DNA from: Octopus sinensis
Lineage: Eukaryota
DNA length: 64,000 bases
Direction: 5' to 3'
Assembly: GCF_006345805.1 (NCBI RefSeq)
Contig: NC_043005.1
Coordinates: 98,828,001-98,892,000, forward strand
This document shows positions 58-62,937 of the stretch, one piece after another. The notes beneath the pieces were generated by a model. It did not search any database and was not told the origin of the DNA. It saw only the letters and a program-made list of their open reading frames with translations. Numbering within the stretch: position 1 is the stretch's first letter; each line of letters begins with the position of its first letter. The position numbers were made by a program, and so were the translations under genes.

Positions 58-300
58 TCATCATCGTTGTTTAACGTTTGCTTTCCATGCTAGCATGGGT
101 TGGACGATTTTGACTGAGGGCTGGCGAGTCTGATGGCTGCACCAGGCTCCAATCTTGATTTGACAGAGTTTCTACAGCTGGATGCCCTTCCTAACGCCAA
201 CCACTCCGAGAGTGTAGTGGATGCTTTTTACATGTCACTGACATGGGAGCCAGTCAGGCGGTACTGGCAATAACCTCGCTCGAATCTTTTTACACGTGCC
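56..300 (-). mobile_element. SINE family A, RTE-type tail with (GAT)n end
   Basis: catcatc..tttaacgt..tttccatgctagcatgggttggacg...ctacagctggatgcccttcctaacgccaacc, repeated many times in the window. Confidence 0.82.
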
Positions 301-24187: not shown

Positions 24188-24487
24188 ATCAAAATAAGCA
24201 ACATGTATATCCAAGGTAGAGTAGTACAGTTGTTTCATGCTACTTCATTTTATTAAACACTGTAAGTATTATATCAGTTTTAAAATGTCGAGCAATCTTC
24301 AGCCACATATAGAATTTTCCAATCAAACGCACAATGCACATTGTCTGTTTGATTGGAAAATTCTATAAGTGGCTGAAGATTGCTCGACATTTTAAAACTG
24401 ATGTAATACTTACAGTGTTTAATAAAATGAAGTAGCATGAAACAATTGTACTACTCTACCTTGGATATACATGTTGCTTATTTTGAT
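24188..24487. mobile_element. 300-bp near-perfect palindrome made of two inverted PLE pLTR copies
   Basis: Arms are reverse-complementary about a centre at 24337/24338 (acaatg-ca-cattgt). The right arm is homologous to the pLTR at 5250-5380. Confidence 0.88.
24368..24455 (+). ncRNA. Type I hammerhead ribozyme (mirror copy on - strand at 24220-24307)
   Basis: agtgg-CTGAAGA-[t tgct...agca t]-GAAA-c aatt g-TA-ctact. Confidence 0.75.
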
Positions 24488-34236: not shown

Positions 34237-36532
34237 CTATATATATATATATATATATAGCTACATATATAGATACACATACACACACACATATATATCC
34301 CAAAAGTCACCACACACACACACACATATATATGTTAGTCTTGGAAGTTACTTGCCAACTTTACTAGTGCTGGTGACACACACAAAACAAAGCACCCAAT
34401 ACACACTGCAGGTTGGCATTAGGAAGGACATCCAGCCATGGAAACCATATCAAAGCTGACATGGAACACAAGGTAGCGCTGTGGCTCATCAGATTCTGTC
34501 AAACCATCCAGCATGGAAAACGGATGTTAGATAATGGTGATACAGAGTAGCTTCAGCTTTCTGAATTGTTACTCTGAGTTTCATGCTTCTTCTTATTTGA
34601 AAAATAAAAATTAGAATAGCAAAGTAGAGCCATATGTCAACAAAAAGTACTTGAAAATATGCCAATATATGATTGGCCACCAATATAATACCAGAAATAC
34701 ACTACAATTCAACATATATAATTGAGAGTGCAGTGACAGGGATGGAGAAGCAGCTCCAGAAAAATGACATCTTAAAATCAATAATATATTATAAAAATTA
34801 AATATATCAAAATATTTGAAATAAAAAAAAAAATGGAAGAAATTTTCCAGGGTATTGTGAATCCAATGAACGGGGAAAAGACCTGCTAGCCTGTAGAAAA
34901 CTGAAGCTTTAATAAATAACAACGACAATGATGATGAACAACGGAACTGTCTGCAGCAATGAATTCGGATTTTCTGCTCAAAATTGCAAGATTGCAATAA
35001 AATGTCATATTTCTCACAAATGCATCAATCACAACTTCTGGAACATTAGACATTGCTAATATTGCTGGTAAGCTGGGAAATGCTATTTAGCTGCCAGTGG
35101 GTCTGATCCAGAATAAATATCATCAAAGGCATTCCAGCTTTATCATTGTTTTTTAGTCAAGTATATTGTATTTCCTCATCTTAAGATAGGAGAATGTGGT
35201 TTGAGGGAGATATGACTGTTATTTATTGCAGGATCAATGAATAACTATGAGGTGGTGTCAAAAAGTTCCCAGACTTGTTCTGTAGTGTGCCAACAAATGG
35301 CAGCACACAGTTGTATGCACAATGAGAGCTAGCAGTGACCTTCATGAGGCAGTGTGCTGAGTGACATCACTGTGTTTATTTGGCAAGTTGTGAAATTGGT
35401 GTCTTTGTGATCACATGTTTGCTGTTGTCTGCAATTTTGTCATGGATGGGAAATTGGAACAAAGAGCCAACGTGAAATTTCTGTTAAACATGGGAAGTCT
35501 ACTATAGAGACTTTGAACATGCTTCAGCAAGCTTATGACAATGAGGCAATAGGTTGTATGCAATGTTTTGAGTGGCATAGGCACTTGAAAAATAGAAGAC
35601 TGTCCCTGGAAGTTGATGAGCAATCTGGAAGACCTGCCATGAGCATCACCTGTGGAAATGGGGAGAAAATTCATCAGCTTGTGCATGAAGATTGTCGAAG
35701 GACAATCAACAATATTGCTGATGTTGTCGGTCTGTCATATGGGTCCATGCTGGCAATCCTAACGCCTGAATTGAACATGCACTGTGTCTCTGCCAAGTTT
35801 GTCCCCTGCCAGCTGACCACTGAGCAGAAAGAATATCATGTCAAAGTCTGTCAAGATCTCTGTCAGAGTGCCACTGATGACCAATCCTTCATGATCATCA
35901 CTGGTGACGAGAATTGAGTCTACAGGTACAGCCCTGAGATGAAGCAGTCATCCCAATAGAAGAGCCTTTCATCTCCATGACCGAAGAAGGCATGACAGAG
36001 CTACAGGTCAATTGAGAGCATGCTCATCATTTTTTTCAAAATCCATGGTATTGTGCATCAAGAGTTCATCTCCCAGGGTCAGACTGTTAATTGAGAGTTC
36101 TACTGTGACATTTTGAAGTGTTTGAGGGAGGACATTCGGTGAAAGCAACTGGATCTGTAGAGCGCAAAGAATCGAATTCTTCATGACAACAATGCACCCT
36201 GTTACTGAGCTCGCCTCACTCATGAATTTCTCACCAAAAACAACATGGTATTGCTTCTTCACCTGCCCTATTCACCAGATTTAGCACCTGTGAACTTCCA
36301 TCTCTTCCCCAAGATGAAAAGGCAGCTCAAAGTTCACCATTTTAGCACCCTTGTCAGGATCCAGAGTGAATTGCAGAAGGTTCTTGACTTGCTTATGGAA
36401 AATGACTTCCAGGATGGATTCCAAAAGTGGCAGGAACGCTGGGACCAGTATATTGCTTTGCAAGGTGACTATTTCAAAGGAGATGATGTTAAAACTTTGG
36501 TAAATAAGCTACTTTGTATTAAGCATAACTAG

Positions 36533-37022
36533 GAGTAAAGATTTTTGCCAACATAACATGGCAGTCCTGATTTAGGATGAATGTTGCTGTCATTTAGCCC
36601 CAGGAGACATCGTCTCCAGCTGGCTATACGACATGATCTGTATCCTTATATTTTCGAACAAGGGAACCTAGCACCCCCACTCAGCTCAAAACAATATCTG
36701 TGTATCGCGATTTCCAGGTTATTTCTCTTCATCAGCACAGAATAATGGATCAGCTAGAGGTAGCGCTGACAAAGGGAAATAACCCGGAAATTGTGATACA
36801 CAGATATTGCTTTGAGCTGAGTGGGGGTGCTAGATTCCCTTGTTTGAAAATATAAGGACACAGATCATGTCGTATAGCCAGCTGGTGACGATGTCTCCTG
36901 GGGCTAAATTACAGCAACATTCATTCTAAACCAGGACTGCCATGTTATGTTGGCAAAAATCTTTACTCCAAAGTACTGTTGCTGAATATCTCTCATTGTG
37001 AGATTTAAAAATAGTAATTTTC
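36533..37022. mobile_element. Fold-back pLTR element with two hammerhead cores, inserted into a mariner, 13-bp TSD
   Basis: Inverted repeat 36532-36969 with arms of about 205 bp. Flanked by taagcataactag (36520-32) and taaacataactag (37023-35). Confidence 0.85.
36697..36741 (-). ncRNA. Type I hammerhead ribozyme (decayed mirror copy on + strand at about 36763-36804)
   Basis: Minus strand: tctgtg-CTGATGA-a gag aaataa cct g-GAAA-tcgcga-TA-cacaga. 6-bp stem I and palindromic stem III. The + copy has a better stem II (ggg aaataa ccc) but CTGACAA in the core. Confidence 0.72.
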
Positions 37023-38073: not shown

Positions 38074-39880
38074 CAGATATATATATATCATTGACTCATA
38101 TGTTTATAATTGGTGTAGTAGACTATTCTTCAAATAAAAAAACCACTGTGTTTTAATGTCTCAAATATGCTTAAGCTGCCTTATAAGTTTGCTGCGCACA
38201 CTGTGGAATAGTATGTCTGGTTTAAAACCATCAGTAAACTCTTAGAAAAACGGAAAATAATAGCAAAGTATAGGAAAATTCTAGCAATGGTGCAAGTTGA
38301 AACCAAAGTAAATTGAATTTAAAGAAAAGCTGTTGAAGTTATTTACAATCTTTTTGTACGTTCATTTTTGTTTTGTTTTTATTTTTGTGTCCTTCAAATC
38401 CCTGAAATGACAAAAAAAAAAAAAAAATTAACAAAATAAATAAAAATAAAACAAAACAAAAAAAATTATTTATTGCTTTTTAGTTTTATTTTTCTGTGAG
38501 GATTTATTCTTTTATTTTCTGATAAATTATTGTCTGCTTAAAAATAGTGGAAAATGTGATTTATAGCCAAATTATTAAGACGTCAAATTGCCTGGAAATG
38601 ATGGGGAGAAAAGTCAGGTGATTCTATCTGCACTCACTGAAGTTAAAGCATTTTCAATTCGTTTATTCTCTGTAGCTTTCTGGCTGGATGGCTTTTCTTT
38701 TAGCTGTGTTGGGGTATTAGGACACTGCTGCATAAGATATTACTCTGATGTCGTTAGGTCTGTAGCCAAAAGAGTAAATAGTTTGCATAAATCTCTTCCA
38801 CATCACACTTGTCTGACACATCAAAATAACATTAGTTTCCCCTTATTTAGTTTTTCTTCCATTATTTTTTATCTTTTCCTTTTTTGTGAGCATTAAATTA
38901 TTTGTAAGACACAAATATATGAAAATAAAAATACACTTGCAGTTTTATATTGATTTCTCTTTGGCTCAGCTAAGAACCCCTCTTTTTTTTTTTTTGTTTT
39001 TTTCTATGCGAAGTGTTATAGTTGAGATAATTGCTTGGTTGTTAAATATTTTATCAACCCTTAGAGGGAGATTTAACCCCAGCATAGTTGAACCTAAAAA
39101 AAATTACAGCATCAAACACTGTAAATAATAAAAAAAATATCTAATTTTTCTGTCTGTCTGTTAGCCATTATTGCTGCTATGGTGAGTTAATAATGATGTG
39201 GGGTACAGAATATGTGAAAATGCATCAATAAATGACAAAGATCGGATACTTTTAGAATGACTTGACATTCCATTGTTACTTTGCCATTCTTACATTCCAT
39301 TGTCAGCTGTGTTTTCCTGAAACTCCTCTATTTCTCTTTACTTCACATCTGCTGTTGATATTATTATTAGTATAACCGTTCTGTGACACGAATCACAGAA
39401 AGGCATGAAAGCATCGGTGTCTTTGCAAGCAGATAATTAATGATCATCAACAAACATACTCCACTGCAAAAAGAAAAAAAATCTCCAGGACTCTCGTATT
39501 ACTTATGTTAGCAAGAGCAACTGAGATGCGCTAACATGCTACCAAAATTCACGATATACTAAGACCGTTTGCATAAAAACTTTCTCTAAAAATACACACT
39601 CAAATACAGAGGAGCAGAATTTCTTCAGAAAGTAAGTTGAAGAAATGGATTTCTCTTAGTTTACCCCATCACCCATTCTATCACTTCCCTTTCTATCGCA
39701 CTTCATAGATTGATTTATCCTGACATAAAGACTTTGATGTTGCTTGAATTTCAACATAAAATGTGAAACCATTGTGTCATCAGTAACTATTACTGCTGTT
39801 CTCAAGCCTTTGCTGCTTCTTCTTCTTCTTCTTCTTCACCACCACGTGTGTGTGTGTATGTATATATATATATATATATT

Positions 39881-40453
39881 GTGAAGGTGTGTGGCCTAGT
39901 GGTTAGGCTCTTGCACTCACGATTGCTAGATTGTGGTTTCATTTCCCTGACTGGAGGGTACATTGTGTTCTTGAGCAAAAGAAAAAAACATTTCATTTCA
40001 CATTGCTCCAGTCCCCCTTTCGATCAAGGGGGGATATTGGTCAGCTTGCCTTGCCAGCAGAGTGGTGTCTTATCTGAAGGCTAAAACAATACAAAAAACA
40101 TTGTGGCCAGAGATATGTAACAATATCTGATAGTCTGGTTGGTCATGTGAGTGTGCGATATATATATATATATATATTGTGAAGGTGTGTGGCCTAGTGG
40201 TTAGGCTCTTGCACTCACGATTGCTAGATTGTGGTTTCATTTCCCTGACTGGAGGGTACATTGTGTTCTTGAGCAAAAGAAAAAAACATTTCATTTCACA
40301 TTGCTCCAGTCCCCCTTTCGATCAAGGGGGGATATTGGTCAGCTTGCCTTGCCAGCAGAGTGGTGTCTTATCTGAAGGCTAAAACAATACAAAAAACATT
40401 GTGGCCAGAGATATGTAACAATATCTGATAGTCTGGTTGGTCATGTGAGTGTG

Positions 40454-40456
<3 letters not shown>
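39881..40456 (+). repeat. Tandem duplication of a SINE (two identical 278-bp units, period 298)
   Basis: 39881-40158 equals 40179-40456, joined by (TA)n. Confidence 0.92.
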
Positions 40457-40495
<39 letters not shown>

Positions 40496-52366: not shown

Positions 52367-52987
<621 letters not shown>

Positions 52988-53888: not shown

Positions 53889-56357
53889 TTGTCTGTATGT
53901 ATATTTGTGTGTGTGTGTGTGTGTGTGTGTGTAAAGCTTTCATAAAATACTGCAGTCACTAAAAGATGGAGAAATGAACCGGCTGTATTTGCTATGCAGC
54001 ATATTTCTGTACATTTGCTTTCAGTTAATACACAGCTTTTAATACTGCACATGCCATTCCAATATTTACCTGCTCTGCCATTTGCAAATATTAATTAGTT
54101 AGATCATAAATTCTGATTGAACTGGTATCTCACTGGTAATATGTGTTTATGGTGATATAGAGAAGTTCTTTAATATGAAATTACAACAGTGTTTCTGTTG
54201 AAGATAAACAAGATAATGATGTTAGATACTGGATGTTGTTAATTTCCATCACTTGGACTGATGAATTCCCAGTGTTTAATTAGAACAACTTCATTCTGCC
54301 TGAAAAGAACTTATATTTTCCTTGAGAAATGTCCTGTTATTTCTTCGTATCATTTGTCTCTACTATTGGCATTAGGAAGGGCATCCAGCTGTAGAAACTC
54401 TGCCAGAATCTGGAGTCTGGAGATTGGAGTCTGGTGCAGCCATCTGGCTCGCCAGACCTCAGTCAAATCGTCCAACCCATGCTAGCATGGAAAGCGGACG
54501 TTAAACGATGATGATGATTGCAACTATCAGTCTTTCAAAAAAAAGCTGATGTTCTTTAATATCCCAGCCATTTTCCAAAAACAGGCTACCTTGCAAGGTG
54601 ACACTAGACATCCAACTGGCTCAGCTCATCTCTCTCCAACCTCCACAGATCTTTCACATTCAGTTTTTCACTGTCAGTATCATGTAGTTGATGATGAGGA
54701 GGATTGTGTTAGCAATGGAGGAGGTCTTCATCATGATCTGTGTCAACATAAAAACAATTCCTCCACATTCCTTAGAACTAGTATTAGTCAATAAACTGTT
54801 GTGGTGGGGGGTAAGGTGTTAATTCACACAATAATCTCTTGGAATGTACTTTATTAAAATCCCAGGTGAAAGTCAATTTAGTTGAGCAAGATTTGAACTT
54901 TAGTCCATCATTTGACCTTTGGCTTTACTTGCCAACATTTTATCCTGTCTTTGTTGTAAATAGTACAGCTTTGGTGGAATTAACATTTTGTATATTAGCA
55001 TTTTGGAAGAGCTCTTGATAAGAAACTGAAAAGCCACATTTGGCTGACTTCAATAACAGCATGAACAATGATGGTGAGGAGAGGGAGAAGGAAATTTCAT
55101 TCTTGGTTGAAAATTAGTTCCATTCTGTGCCAAGTGACTAATTGTTATTTTCATAAGTAATTTCGATATTTAGTCTTAAGTACACTTATCAGTAGTGCCC
55201 CCTGTTGTGGCTTCTGATAATGTATTTCTAGTTTTGTCTGTATCAGTCCATCTGTCTGTTTTTCTTTGTGTGTGTGAGAGAGAGAAGAGAGAGAGAGAGA
55301 GAAAGATTACCAGAGCTGTCAGCTACCTGTCAGTTTAATAACTATTCAAGGTCTCTTCACAGCAGTTTCAAACCAAGGATTGTCTTGCTTAATTGATCAC
55401 TGGAATTCCAGCCAAATTAATAGATGTGTTGTTTGGGAAATTCTGTACACCGGATCTCTAACTGGTTTTCTCTGTTGTATTTCATGGTTTCCAGGCAAGC
55501 AGTTCTTTGCATGGAACCAATGGATATTTTAAGAAAGTGTGTCTTTTCCCAGATGTATTATTAATCCCTAAAGCACACACATTTTCTTGATGATGCTATT
55601 GCTTTTGTTCTTCCCACATTATCGATCTTTTTATCTCCTTAGCACACATATCCATGGATAATACTCAATTGTATCTATACCCCACAATGTCTTTTATTGA
55701 CTGTGGCCATGCTGAAGCACCACCTTGGAGAATTTTAGTCAAAGAAATCAACCCCAGTACTTATATATATATTTTTTTAGGCTGGTGCTTATTCTATTGG
55801 TCTCTTTTGCTGAACTACTAAGTTGTAGGGACATAAACACATCAACACCTGTTGTCAAGCAGGGAGGGGGAGACAAACACAGACACACATTGGCGTTGGG
55901 TGGGGGGCAGAAAGATGGAGTATTTCTAATGCAGCACTCAACCCAAGCTTTAGGTTGTCTACACTCTTGGATTAAAATCTTAAGATTGAATTTCTTCAGG
56001 TGTAGAAAATCCAGGTGTCACAACAGTAAAACCAATGTATGGGTCAAGTGAAAAGTAAAATATAATCCAAATATGAAGACAAAGAAAGAGTTTATTGCAT
56101 CTTTGGTGACCAGTTGCTGTTGTTTCTCTACCAGTTTGTGCAAGTGTTCCATGTGAAAATTTACATAATATTTGCTTGTGCCATGTAAAAAGCACTCAGT
56201 CTACTCTGCTGGGTGGTTGGTGTTAGGAAGGGCATCCAGCTGTAAAAACCCTGTCAAAACAGACACAGAAGTCTGATGCATGCTCCTTTCTGGTCAGCTC
56301 CTGTCAAACCATCCAACCCATGCCAGCATGGAAGATGGCTGTTAAATGATGATGATA

Positions 56358-56590
56358 CAGGCATATGGCATAGTGATTAAGAGCGTGGGCTACTAACCCC
56401 AAGATTCTGAGTTCAATTCTAGGCAGTGCCCTGGATAATAATAATAATAACAACATTGAAAAATACCTTAGGAATGAGAACCCAGTTCCAAATTTCCCCA
56501 AGACACCTGATGAAGGCTGGGGAATATATCAACCGAAATGTGTTAACAAACAAGATGAGGACAAATATCCGTCAAATGTAAATAATGTAA
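56358..56590 (+). mobile_element. tRNA-derived SINE head fused via (AAT)n to a hammerhead-bearing pLTR-like tail
   Basis: A-box tggcatagtgat (56366-77), B-box gttcaattc (56411-19), then acac-CTGATGA-a ggctg...caacc-GAAA-t-gtgt (56503-56543). Confidence 0.68.
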
Positions 56591-58951
56591 ATGATGATGA
56601 TGATGATTTACAGTTTGAGACATAAGAGTCGCACTTTTATTTTCATTTTTATCTTTCTTTATATTTTTTGTCCCTTTTCGATACAAGCAAAACACAAAGC
56701 CTAGCAGATACACAAACTTAGAGAGCACCCTTGATGTAGGTCTGAAGAAGTGCTACTCTGACGTTTGAAACTGCAAATATTACATAAATTTTCCTCTGAA
56801 ACTTCTGTATGAAATGGTATTGAAAACAGAGTTGGTCATTAAAGATGTGATAAACTTGATCTTGTTTAGATTATATCATCATCATCATCATCATTGTTTA
56901 ACGTCCGTTTTCCATGCTAGCATGGGTTGGACGGTTTGACTGGGGTCTGGGAAGCCAGGAGGCTGCACCAGGCCCCAGTCTGATCTGGCAGTGTTTCTAC
57001 AGCTGGATGCCCTTCCTAACGCCAACCACTTCACGAGTGTAGTGGGTGCCTTTTACGTGCCACCGGCGGGCATTTTTCAGTTTTCATCTACCAAATCCAC
57101 TCACAAGGCTTTGGTTGGCCTGAGGCTATAGTAGAAGACACTTGCCCAAGGTGCCACTCAGGGGGACTGACCCAGGAACCATATAGTTGGGAAGCAAACT
57201 TTTTACCACACCAACTCTGCTTGCAAACGTTAAAGATCAGTGTGTAATGAATTGACGAATCCAGACACAATCTTAACCACATTGTTGTATTCTCTGTTTC
57301 TTTTGGTATATTTTTATCTTTTGCTATATTCCTCTTCCTCATTATCATCATTTAATGTTTGCTTTTTGTTGCCTGCATGGGTCAGACAGAATTTTCTACA
57401 GCCTGATACACTTCTGGTTGCCTACCCTCACCTGTATCTGAGCAAGGAGGATGATCATTAACAACCGTCATGTGATGCATCGATGACTTAAATATTGCTA
57501 TAGTTACTAGATTAAAAGAAATACTGAAAATACAATATCCATATATTAGGTAGCATGTTTACCCAGTGAATAGTTGTGCAGTTCAGTCCTAGACAAGGGC
57601 CAACAACACACTTCTTTCAAATTGGTTTGTTTATGGTGTGCTTTTCTTTCAACTTACATCTGTTTGTTTAAGTTCATAGATGAGATGTCTTTATGGGTAG
57701 CATTTCTTTATTCTACCCTGATAACATTCACACAACATCTAATAGTGAAATGGGTCTAGCGTTTACTTTACAGCATAGGACACTGAGATTAACAAAATAG
57801 TTTGTTTTGTCTAGAAGTTCAACTTTAATGAGTGTAATTAGTAGTGTGTGAACCTATAGTCTGGTGGTAGAAATGAGATAGCTAAGTATACTTAACCTCA
57901 TATCAGCCTCTGTAGTCATAGCTGGTCTAACTATCAGTAGTTGTGCTTTTAGTCTGGTGTACGCCAGGCTACTATGTATTAAGCTCATCATGAATGGGTT
58001 AAAGGAAAGTTAAATATAAACTGTAGAATATAAGGCGGTGAATGCTAGTTTGTTTTGGTTGGAATTGATGCAGTGAAGGTAAACAATACAGTATATTAAC
58101 TAAAAGAGAGAAGAAAGTAATTTTGGTAAGAACCCTTTGTGAGAAAATAAGATTCACCTTCTAATTCTCAGCTCCTGACTGGTAAAACTAGTTATGTGAA
58201 TGACTTTATGATACATGGCAGAGCATTGATTGATGACACTAAAGCATATAAGCTTGCAGTTCACTGAGAGGGAATGCTGATACGTTAGGGATGGAGGCTT
58301 GGGATATTATCAGAGCCTATGTAAAGAAAGAACGAGATGGCACATCATTTACAATCTCTGAAGATAGAGCACATGTTCAGTGTCTTTGAGATTGCTTTGT
58401 TCAGCAATCTTTGAGATTGCTTTGTTCTTTTATTATAATTGCCAGTTGATTGTGTTTCCTGATAACACTTTTACAGCTTCTGATCTTCAACGCTGATGAT
58501 ATCATGGTGATAATTTAGTAACTTAGACACATCACACACACACACACACACGCACACACTCTTTCTGATCAAATACCAAAAATGCTGTTAAGAACCAGCC
58601 TCTGTCACCTACTTCAGATATACTTTACCTAAAGCATATATCTAAATCATAAAAGACTATCTCTGTGATGTTTATCCACAAGAGGAAGGAGGAATGCAAA
58701 GCTAATCTATCAGAATCCTAGCCTATAGCATCATCTGCATAGAAATAGAATTGACAGTCAATAACCAATTGCACAACTACCTGTGAAAATTGAGTCAGGG
58801 ATCAGTTCAGATATGAGTAAGGTGGTAGCCTGTAGCCTTCTGTTGCTGGAAAGGTTTCTGTTTGGTTGGAAGTTAATAGCAACTCCTTCCCTATTTTCCA
58901 TCCTTCTGTGTAATTATGTTGTCACACAAACAAGGATTATATTAAATAGTG

Positions 58952-62370: not shown

Positions 62371-62937
62371 TATAAACAACTTATAAATAAGGGCAAACGA
62401 AAAAATTTCTAATGCCAAATATGCCGAAATAAGACACATTGTCCATAACCATATAATTTACCACAATACACATGCTACTCGATAAAATTTTTACAGAAAT
62501 TTTTTTTTTTTTTTTTTTTTCCGAAAAAATTTTATCCTATATTAAATATAAATTTAATAGTGTTCCCTTCCAGACTCCCTTACTCTGTGAGAGTTTCAGT
62601 TCGAATCGTACATGTCTTGAATGGGTTGGTGAATTTCTATTTTGGATATATTTGGGGTACTTAGTTGTGCTCATGACTTAGTGTTTGCTTCTTCCATGGG
62701 TATGAGTAAGTATTTCATATATTTCTTTTGCCGCATTTATCACTGACGAAGGGAGGGTTCTTACGAACTAACCTTGAAATCGGTCCGATATGGTAATAAC
62801 GGAATTTTTTTAGAAATTTCTGTCGACCTTTTTCAAGTAGCATGCGTATTGTGGTAAATTATACGGTTATGGACAATGTTTCTTATTTGGCATTAGAAAT
62901 TCTTTCGTTTGCCCTTATTTATTATAAGTTGTTTATA
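62371..62937 (+). mobile_element. PLE pLTR with a partial inverted copy at its 5' side
   Basis: 62371-62523 is the reverse complement of 62800-62937, with an HHR between the arms. Starts in (TA)n and truncates the adjacent maT element. Confidence 0.8.
62737..62796 (+). ncRNA. Type I hammerhead ribozyme, intact
   Basis: ttatca-CTGACGA-[aggg ag ggttc ttac gaact aa cctt]-GAAA-tcg gtc cga-TA-tggtaa. 6-bp stem I, extended stem II, 4-bp stem III. Predicted cleavage after 62790. Confidence 0.87.

Follow-up and report, generated by a model that had tools for sequence, protein, structure and literature searches.

A tRNA-headed hammerhead repeat of Octopus sinensis is a solo pLTR of a coding Penelope-like element, its head likely a Pol III promoter

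Introduction

One locus in the genome of Octopus sinensis, lying in a stretch of 64,000 nucleotides that was analysed as a whole (hereafter the window), raises the question of how a tRNA-like head with A and B boxes comes to be joined to a hammerhead ribozyme. Schistosoma SM-alpha and the octopus repeats OK, OR1 and OR2 are tRNA-derived SINEs, and a preliminary description of the locus took it for a candidate ribozyme SINE that had borrowed the terminal repeat (pLTR) of a Penelope-like element (PLE) and was mobilised by it. At the level of transcription, the mobile elements for which Pol III promoters have been described, SINEs and TRIMp3, are short and code for no protein, and the enzyme is considered too poorly processive to serve autonomous elements (PMC10886601, cited in part). 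The reading favoured here, with a probability of about 0.7, is that the unit is a solo pLTR of a 2.7-kb coding PLE and that its tRNA-like head is likely a Pol III promoter setting the start of the RNA. If true, a coding PLE driven by a tRNA promoter breaks the rule just mentioned, and how its uncapped RNA gets translated becomes a question in its own right.

The window copy

The A and B boxes, the (AAT)n linker and the hammerhead first reported from the sequence are all present, within 56357-56588. The parts of this copy are listed below; the length of the TSD is inexact because the target site is an (ATG)n microsatellite.

56344-56356, + strand: left TSD, 13 bp, within the (ATG)n tail of another repeat; the identical 13 letters stand at 56589-56601
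56357-56588, + strand: decayed solo pLTR insertion, between 13-bp direct repeats
56357-56433, + strand: tRNA-like head, the 5' part of the pLTR, with a 2-nt leader and tRNA position 1 at 56359 (family alignment)
56366-56376, + strand: A box, 11-mer, its final G altered in this copy (sequence)
56411-56420, + strand: B box, 10-mer, CpG-decayed in this copy (sequence)
about 56435-56454, + strand: (AAT)n linker, of differing length between family copies
56474-56588, + strand: start of the PLE ORF within the pLTR, ATG at 56474 (frames in L130 and L127)
56502-56544, + strand: minimal type I hammerhead, helix III deleted, predicted inactive (motif and family alignment)
56545-56588, + strand: 3' part of the pLTR, stopping at the first (tail-less) family end point
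56589-56601, + strand: right TSD, a 13-letter match to the left repeat

Counted from 56359 as position 1, the boxes stand at positions 8 and 53, a tRNA-like spacing, and both deviate from the family majority. It is on these boxes and their spacing that the tRNA likeness of the head rests: ARAGORN made no tRNA call in the window or in 60 family loci, and the Rfam tRNA model gave the window head 16 bits (E 1.2), below its cut-off of 29. In the hammerhead, helix I (GACAC at 56502-56506 with GTGTT at 56540-56544) is followed inwards by the core CTGATGA (56507-56513), an extra A, helix II (GGCTG/CAACC) and GAAA (56535-56538). Helix III, the absence of which had been noticed from the beginning, was lost through a 3-nt deletion together with CpG decay relative to the family. 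The ORF start is frameshifted by a 1-nt deletion near 56485, and the copy has neither a tail nor an inverted arm. It is an ordinary dead solo pLTR.

A fixed and old family

A search of the genome for the head and tail as one unit gave 4,957 candidate matches, and all 40 that were scored ran full length from head to tail, at 87-90% identity except for the window itself. With the head alone as query, the tail sequence was found within 260 nt in 28 of 30 loci, the window counted. Exact motifs occurred 5,275 times for the head and 13,456 times for the tail, while their reversed controls occurred 0 times and once. Head and tail, the co-occurrence of which was the first check proposed for this locus, are thus paired beyond chance as a fixed unit, and the first two of these results refute the idea that a tRNA-like repeat and a hammerhead repeat came to lie side by side at this one locus, an explanation that retains practically no probability. 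The family is old, its copies standing 8-9% from the majority sequence.

For the counts given below, a position-ordered sample was drawn from the first 61 head matches listed for contig C1; with one inverted pair taken once it comprised 60 loci, of which 57 are independent copies. Identical insertions in duplicated segments or uncollapsed haplotypes (L199, L200, L202 and L203 on C1, and L092-L094 with L096) were tallied once.

The unit belongs to a coding Penelope-like element

The upstream flank shared by four loci (L011, L016, L033 and L053) translates to reverse transcriptase (RT) and endonuclease motifs and ends just before the head. It was from these common flanks that the PLE partner was found, and not from a search for GIY-YIG (PF01541) loci, the 30 loci of which were mostly Neptune-like and in no case matched the tail. 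Of 30 loci retrieved with the ORF-end stretch as query, 26 have the unit downstream of the ORF end, three of these being duplicates of one insertion. At the opposite end the pLTR tail continues in frame into the ORF, so that a PLE sharing the tail, which had been suggested as a target of search, does exist; natural frames that start inside the pLTR and pass through the tail into the ORF reach 391 codons in L130 and 401 in L127, and L244 is a complete copy running from head to second head. The majority repeat unit measures 2,693 nt and holds a single ORF of ~840 aa, made up of a 780-codon open frame and the pLTR part; a one-base frame slip is present near the tail in the second majority, and the 780-codon frame was used for tests.

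At the protein level, the ORF matches the RVT_1 profile (E 6.5e-9), and a C-terminal block, YxIPC..YxGET..EEH..H, is conserved and aligns with homologs; PF01541 gave no match on the tested C-terminal stretch of L103. Among 314 homologs of the ORF, one (P0075) is named a GIY-YIG endonuclease; of those with a name, the nearest to the linked protein comes from Octopus sinensis, with 73% identity across 55% of the query. Proteins of sister families are 60-69% identical. An intact full-length ORF was not seen, the longest stop-free match being 551 aa; the N-terminal part is open in natural copies. What looked like a conserved stop near codon 159, to which an early test spanning only 164 codons was tied, arose from aligning to a reference with a deletion, and the frame of natural copies is open at this point.

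That the window unit is the pLTR of an autonomous 2.7-kb coding PLE is as good as certain; its ORF has an RT and a putative GIY-YIG-type endonuclease, and the arrangement that defines a PLE, with pLTRs on both sides of the ORF and partial tandems, is present. Domain order, the start of the ORF in the pLTR and sequence motifs place it tentatively in the Penelope/Poseidon clade. As regards the features of a SINE2, A and B boxes at tRNA spacing are found, though neither ARAGORN nor the Rfam cut-off is reached. A SINE2 head is absent from the autonomous partner and has a non-coding lineage of its own, whereas here the head lies within the pLTR of the coding element; and the 3' end, which in a SINE2 is LINE-derived or a simple-repeat tail, falls here at either of two fixed positions within the PLE ORF.

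Marks of insertion

Inverted arms, a one-sided tail and TSDs are marks of PLE insertion (PMC8557442, cited in part). Counted by hand, an inverted arm is present in 30 of the 57 copies of the position-ordered sample and in 42 of the 57 loci of two similarity-ranked sets. The tail is confined to one arm in 22 of 22 pairs with two readable 3' ends, 8 inverted loci having been left out for want of them. Direct repeats of at least 10 nt flank 25 of the 57 sampled copies, as against 4.3% of mismatched flank pairs. The 3' ends of the family fall at two points about 25-30 nt apart, and the 5' edge of the pLTR bears a 5-bp palindrome. PLE machinery inserts the unit. In this respect the preliminary description was right, as it was about a fixed unit and a hammerhead, here of the minimal PLE type; what is not supported is a SINE that borrowed a pLTR, as the coding element has the head in its own pLTRs on either side of the ORF and subfamilies are shared between solo and ORF-linked copies.

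The hammerhead probably does not set the ends

In the family alignment the hammerhead reads GAAAC-GTT-GTGTT with a palindromic helix III, in agreement with the GAAACGT-like core that had been expected of the consensus. Within the position-ordered sample, 6 of 57 hammerheads are fully intact by pattern and 4 carry the 3-nt deletion seen in the window. The family hammerhead is of the minimal type of metazoan PLE pLTRs and a normal part of a PLE, with cleavage as a prediction. It resembles the minimal PLE hammerheads (PMC4209133, cited in part) in being of type I, in the extra nucleotide between 9 and 10.1, in G10.1-C11.1, in the palindromic 15.2-16.2 and in its predicted need for a dimer; it differs from them in nothing of kind, the window copy alone being without helix III.

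Rfam hammerhead models did not match the unit, the fold of the window hammerhead was no better than that of shuffles (z -0.09), none of the folds of the head, the hammerhead and one tail stretch exceeded shuffles, and the active hammerhead fold was absent from minimum-energy dimers. Starts near the predicted ribozyme cut show a weak excess (~6 loci at 76-79 among 33 starts at 55-101). The hammerhead probably does not set the element ends, which lie at the head and at the tail points. Tandem units cut to length by the hammerhead, the hallmark of a retrozyme, were not found, nor were long tandem arrays seen.

Other hammerhead-like sequences were observed. A fold-back unit at window 36532-36969 has 205-bp arms (93%) with outward-facing minimal hammerheads of another family, a TCGCGA palindromic helix III lying on the minus-strand arm, and is likely an inverted pLTR pair. 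At window ~62380-62930 a hammerhead-like core, CTGACGA, stands at 62743 between inverted arms of unrelated sequence. A young Neptune-like PLE family in the genome (781-aa ORF, a 370-aa frame before it in L154, many equal-scoring copies, intact ORFs in L154 and L155) bears a hammerhead-like motif (L068 ~2370-2420, L067, L077) in which U and A replace the usual C3 and G8; its helix III is palindromic.

Probable ends of the template RNA

Exact motif counts along the element run from 90 at the ORF start and 934 at the ORF end to 5,275 at the head and 13,456 at the tail, the last inflated by inverted arms; the ORF-end motif lies 75 nt upstream of the head motif. Of the 57 copies of the position-ordered sample, 46 have their start between -22 and +20 relative to the head, 31 of them between -8 and +6, and copy 5' ends are 8-fold denser at the head than upstream (0.033 against 0.004 per nt), while 11 copies extend upstream past the head. 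From the side of the ORF, 80 of the 90 exact ORF-start matches were fetched, giving 79 independent loci; the 5' head is reached by 11 of these, 8 of which stop there and 3 run into an upstream ORF end (four further 'head' rows among these loci are downstream joins and were not counted). Judged from these copy ends, the RNA very probably starts at the head, ~6 nt before the tRNA-like sequence.

The other end was approached through the joins. After 4 near-duplicates had been dropped, 76 ORF-start loci were surveyed, of which 33 continue into the ORF, 24 break 42-126 nt past the tail and are joined head to tail with another pLTR piece, 13 were classed as running out into flanking DNA (L354 at least is actually a join) and 6 show deletions, inversions or a gap. 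The break points cluster near +72..82 and +112..127 past the tail. When 20 loci (19 joins and L354) were extended, the ORF resumed past the break in none, by which secondary insertion was rejected as the origin of the tandem joins. A direct repeat of at least 10 nt surrounds the entire compound in 9 of the 20, and in 5 the next piece begins, without fold-back, 5-7 nt before tRNA position 1. Because the extra letters at one join (L359/L423) copy the target site, such letters are not proof of RNA tailing. No T run lies near the +120 end point, and the +74 point lies just before three T only. The template RNA likely ends ~6 nt before the head on one side and ~75 or ~120 nt past the tail on the other. 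We infer that RT left one template at its 5' end or at a point of truncation and resumed on a short RNA at the 3' end of the latter, or that it went round a circular RNA. A compound insertion was also seen at L437 117-1138, with the short unit (head to tail +120) on both inverted and direct arms.

Solo copies end at the two RT start points, without the 75-120 nt beyond the tail that the putative short templates carry, and the ORF sequence of these templates exists only in the 5' pLTR of a coding copy. In vitro, RT of the anole Poseidon element starts internally at +111-118, RNA is needed to +172 of the ORF, and hammerhead cleavage is dispensable (PMC11167929). By analogy with this need for RNA extending far past the point where RT starts, the solos would be products rather than sources. 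This bears on the idea of a separate tRNA-headed SINE family with a borrowed PLE end that spreads from its own short copies. Such a family would account for the ~4:1 excess of solo over ORF-linked copies (46 to 11) in the position-ordered sample, and the solos do keep both boxes and both RT start points, so that tailed ones could be re-transcribed. Even so, the idea is quite improbable: the head sits in the autonomous element's own pLTRs, the short templates seem to reach into ORF sequence that is absent from solos, and the demand of the anole element for RNA well past its RT start points the same way (PMC11167929, cited in part).

Subfamilies speak against it as well. Two linked alleles divide the position-ordered sample into 25 G, 11 A and 1 other among solos and 6 G, 1 A and 1 other among ORF-linked copies, both alleles thus occurring in both classes. 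In a pooled larger sample one allele was commoner among ORF-linked copies, at 18 of 31, than among solos, at 14 of 95, the ORF searches having been seeded with that same subfamily; with the search bias removed, no solo-only subfamily was found. Among 95 solo and 31 ORF-linked pLTRs, the A-box pattern is present in 61 and 21, respectively, and the B-box pattern in 72 and 15.

Which polymerase

A Pol III unit is expected to lack oligo-T terminators in its transcribed strand, and none is found. The majority sense strand (2,693 nt at 22% T) has 0 runs of four or more T (T4+) and 30 runs of four A; base shuffling predicts 4.9 T4+ runs (P 0.0056), and synonymous shuffling of the 780 codons predicts 2.6 against the observed 0 (P 0.039). 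Earlier versions of the test gave P 0.005-0.053, the 632-codon version P 0.053. Degenerate T-rich hexamers number 0 in sense and 46 in antisense. Natural decayed copies (n=27), which are not independent of one another, hold 18 T4+ runs against 84 expected. By comparison, 80 related PLE loci from metagenomes hold 401 against 340 expected, and Neptune-like ORFs of the same genome have 9-10. Low phenylalanine was rejected as a cause, the RT region having 4.1% against 3.5-4.1% in 120 homologs. The strength of this test is moderate, and it rests on one family: when a second family of the same clade was sought in the octopus genome as a control, 30 of 30 matches belonged to the same family.

Within the matched stretch, 7 of the 80 related PLE ORF stretches also have no T4 run. 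Two such stretches on metagenome contigs, L283 3001-4575 and L268 3001-4627 (7.6 and 2.9 runs expected), show no tRNA head, and no A/B-box pattern was found downstream of the 80 metagenome loci; from L283 and L268, a second cause of T-run avoidance may exist.

T4-free ORFs without a tRNA head fit the main competing account, in which Pol II transcribes the element, beginning upstream of it or within tandem arrays, the head is what is left of a SINE or tRNA that was captured, and starts arise from palindrome fold-back or an RNase P-like cut near the tRNA-like 5' end. Fold-back could be brought about by the 5-bp palindrome itself, palindromes at inverted junctions being known in PLE pLTRs (PMC3846280, cited in part); 3 of the 11 copies traced from the ORF start, and 11 of the 57 in the position-ordered sample, extend upstream past the head; and autonomous partners of TRIMs with Pol III promoters are expected to use Pol II (PMC10886601, cited in part). 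This account is nevertheless unlikely. Copies without an inverted arm start at the head too, and the five fold-back-free tandem joins begin 5-7 nt upstream of tRNA position 1, unlike a cut at position 1. Moreover, T runs do occur in L268 and L283 once the matched ORF stretch is left, whereas the octopus unit is without T4 throughout, its UTR included.

The inferred start, a purine 13 nt before the A box, suits Pol III. That Pol III makes the short RNAs is probable; that it also makes the coding RNA is possible, at slightly less than an even chance. In the fullest scheme, RNA would start ~6 nt before the tRNA-like sequence and most transcripts would end early, ~75 or 120 nt past the tail, at 345-390 nt in all. 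RT of the element would initiate internally at the two tail points and copy back to the RNA start, giving SINE-sized solo pLTRs, fold-back arms and, through template jumping, tandems. Rare read-through over the T-run-free ORF would yield the coding RNA. Tentatively, then, and with the odds leaning a little against it, the whole 2.7-kb coding RNA may be made by Pol III from a tRNA-derived pLTR promoter, with an ORF purged of T-run terminators and with abortive 345-390-nt transcripts as a built-in SINE-like by-product that builds tandems by template jumping or circularisation. Pol III RNAs have neither cap nor poly(A), and translation would then need explaining.

Relation to known systems

The octopus element has much in common with Poseidon of Anolis (PMC11167929) and Pen2a of Adineta (PMC3846280; both cited in part): a single ORF with RT and, putatively in the octopus, a C-terminal endonuclease, which opens in the pLTR, a hammerhead at the ORF start, two 3' end points defining a tail, an inverted 5'-truncated arm, partial tandems, TSDs and a palindrome at the pLTR edge. 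It differs from them in that its pLTR opens with tRNA A and B boxes where theirs have TATA/Inr-like motifs, its sense strand is T4-free, head-starting solos are very abundant, and fossil joins imply short RNAs with fixed ends. A small-RNA-derived promoter of Pol III type in a terminal repeat is shared with the TRIMp3 elements Cassandra, Helenus and Ajax, for which an origin of the promoter from a SINE insertion has been proposed; unlike the 2.7-kb coding PLE, those are non-coding LTR elements of 0.3-1.3 kb (PMC10886601, cited in part).

Non-autonomous PLE derivatives with hammerheads have been described (bioRxiv 10.64898/2026.07.22.740005; PMC7761336; both cited in part). Non-LTR retrozymes (the same preprint) and MRC1 (PMC8557442, cited in part) are likewise short units, hammerhead-bearing or pLTR-derived, moved by PLE enzymes; the octopus unit differs in that no long tandem arrays were seen, in ends that are probably not set by the ribozyme cut and in being the pLTR of an autonomous element. 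A 2026 repeat annotation of Octopus vulgaris lists 190 PLE families, and hammerheads are unmentioned in the part of it cited here (PMC13282606). The main text of the paper on shark Zenon mentions neither tRNA nor Pol III (PMC13343379, cited in part). Among the full-text papers searched no report of a tRNA-headed pLTR was found; Repbase, subscription papers or bioRxiv supplements could hold one.

With the tRNA-derived SINEs (SM-alpha, OK/OR1/OR2) the unit shares a tRNA-like head with A and B boxes, short length and thousands of copies. It is set apart by the want of a LINE-derived or repeat tail, by its PLE marks and by a head held in common with a coding element, the separation from OK/OR1/OR2 being by class description only. 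The family shows a retrotransposon shedding thousands of SINE look-alikes that annotation would misfile. The tRNA head is a candidate promoter for a PLE, and the tandem joins form a genomic record of template RNA ends, so that pLTR and tandem formation could be tested in the in vitro Poseidon assay.

Other repeats

Near-perfect inverted arms were also observed at window 24188-24487 (149 bp, 97%) and 52521-52925 (164 bp, 87%). At window 39861-40475 a 298-bp unit with a SINE-like head is duplicated exactly in tandem, either as a recent duplication or as an assembly artefact. Finally, under relaxed ARAGORN settings, L269 6662-7429 holds a tandem array of six tRNA-like units spaced 135 nt apart, and a PLE ORF lies ~2 kb upstream of it.
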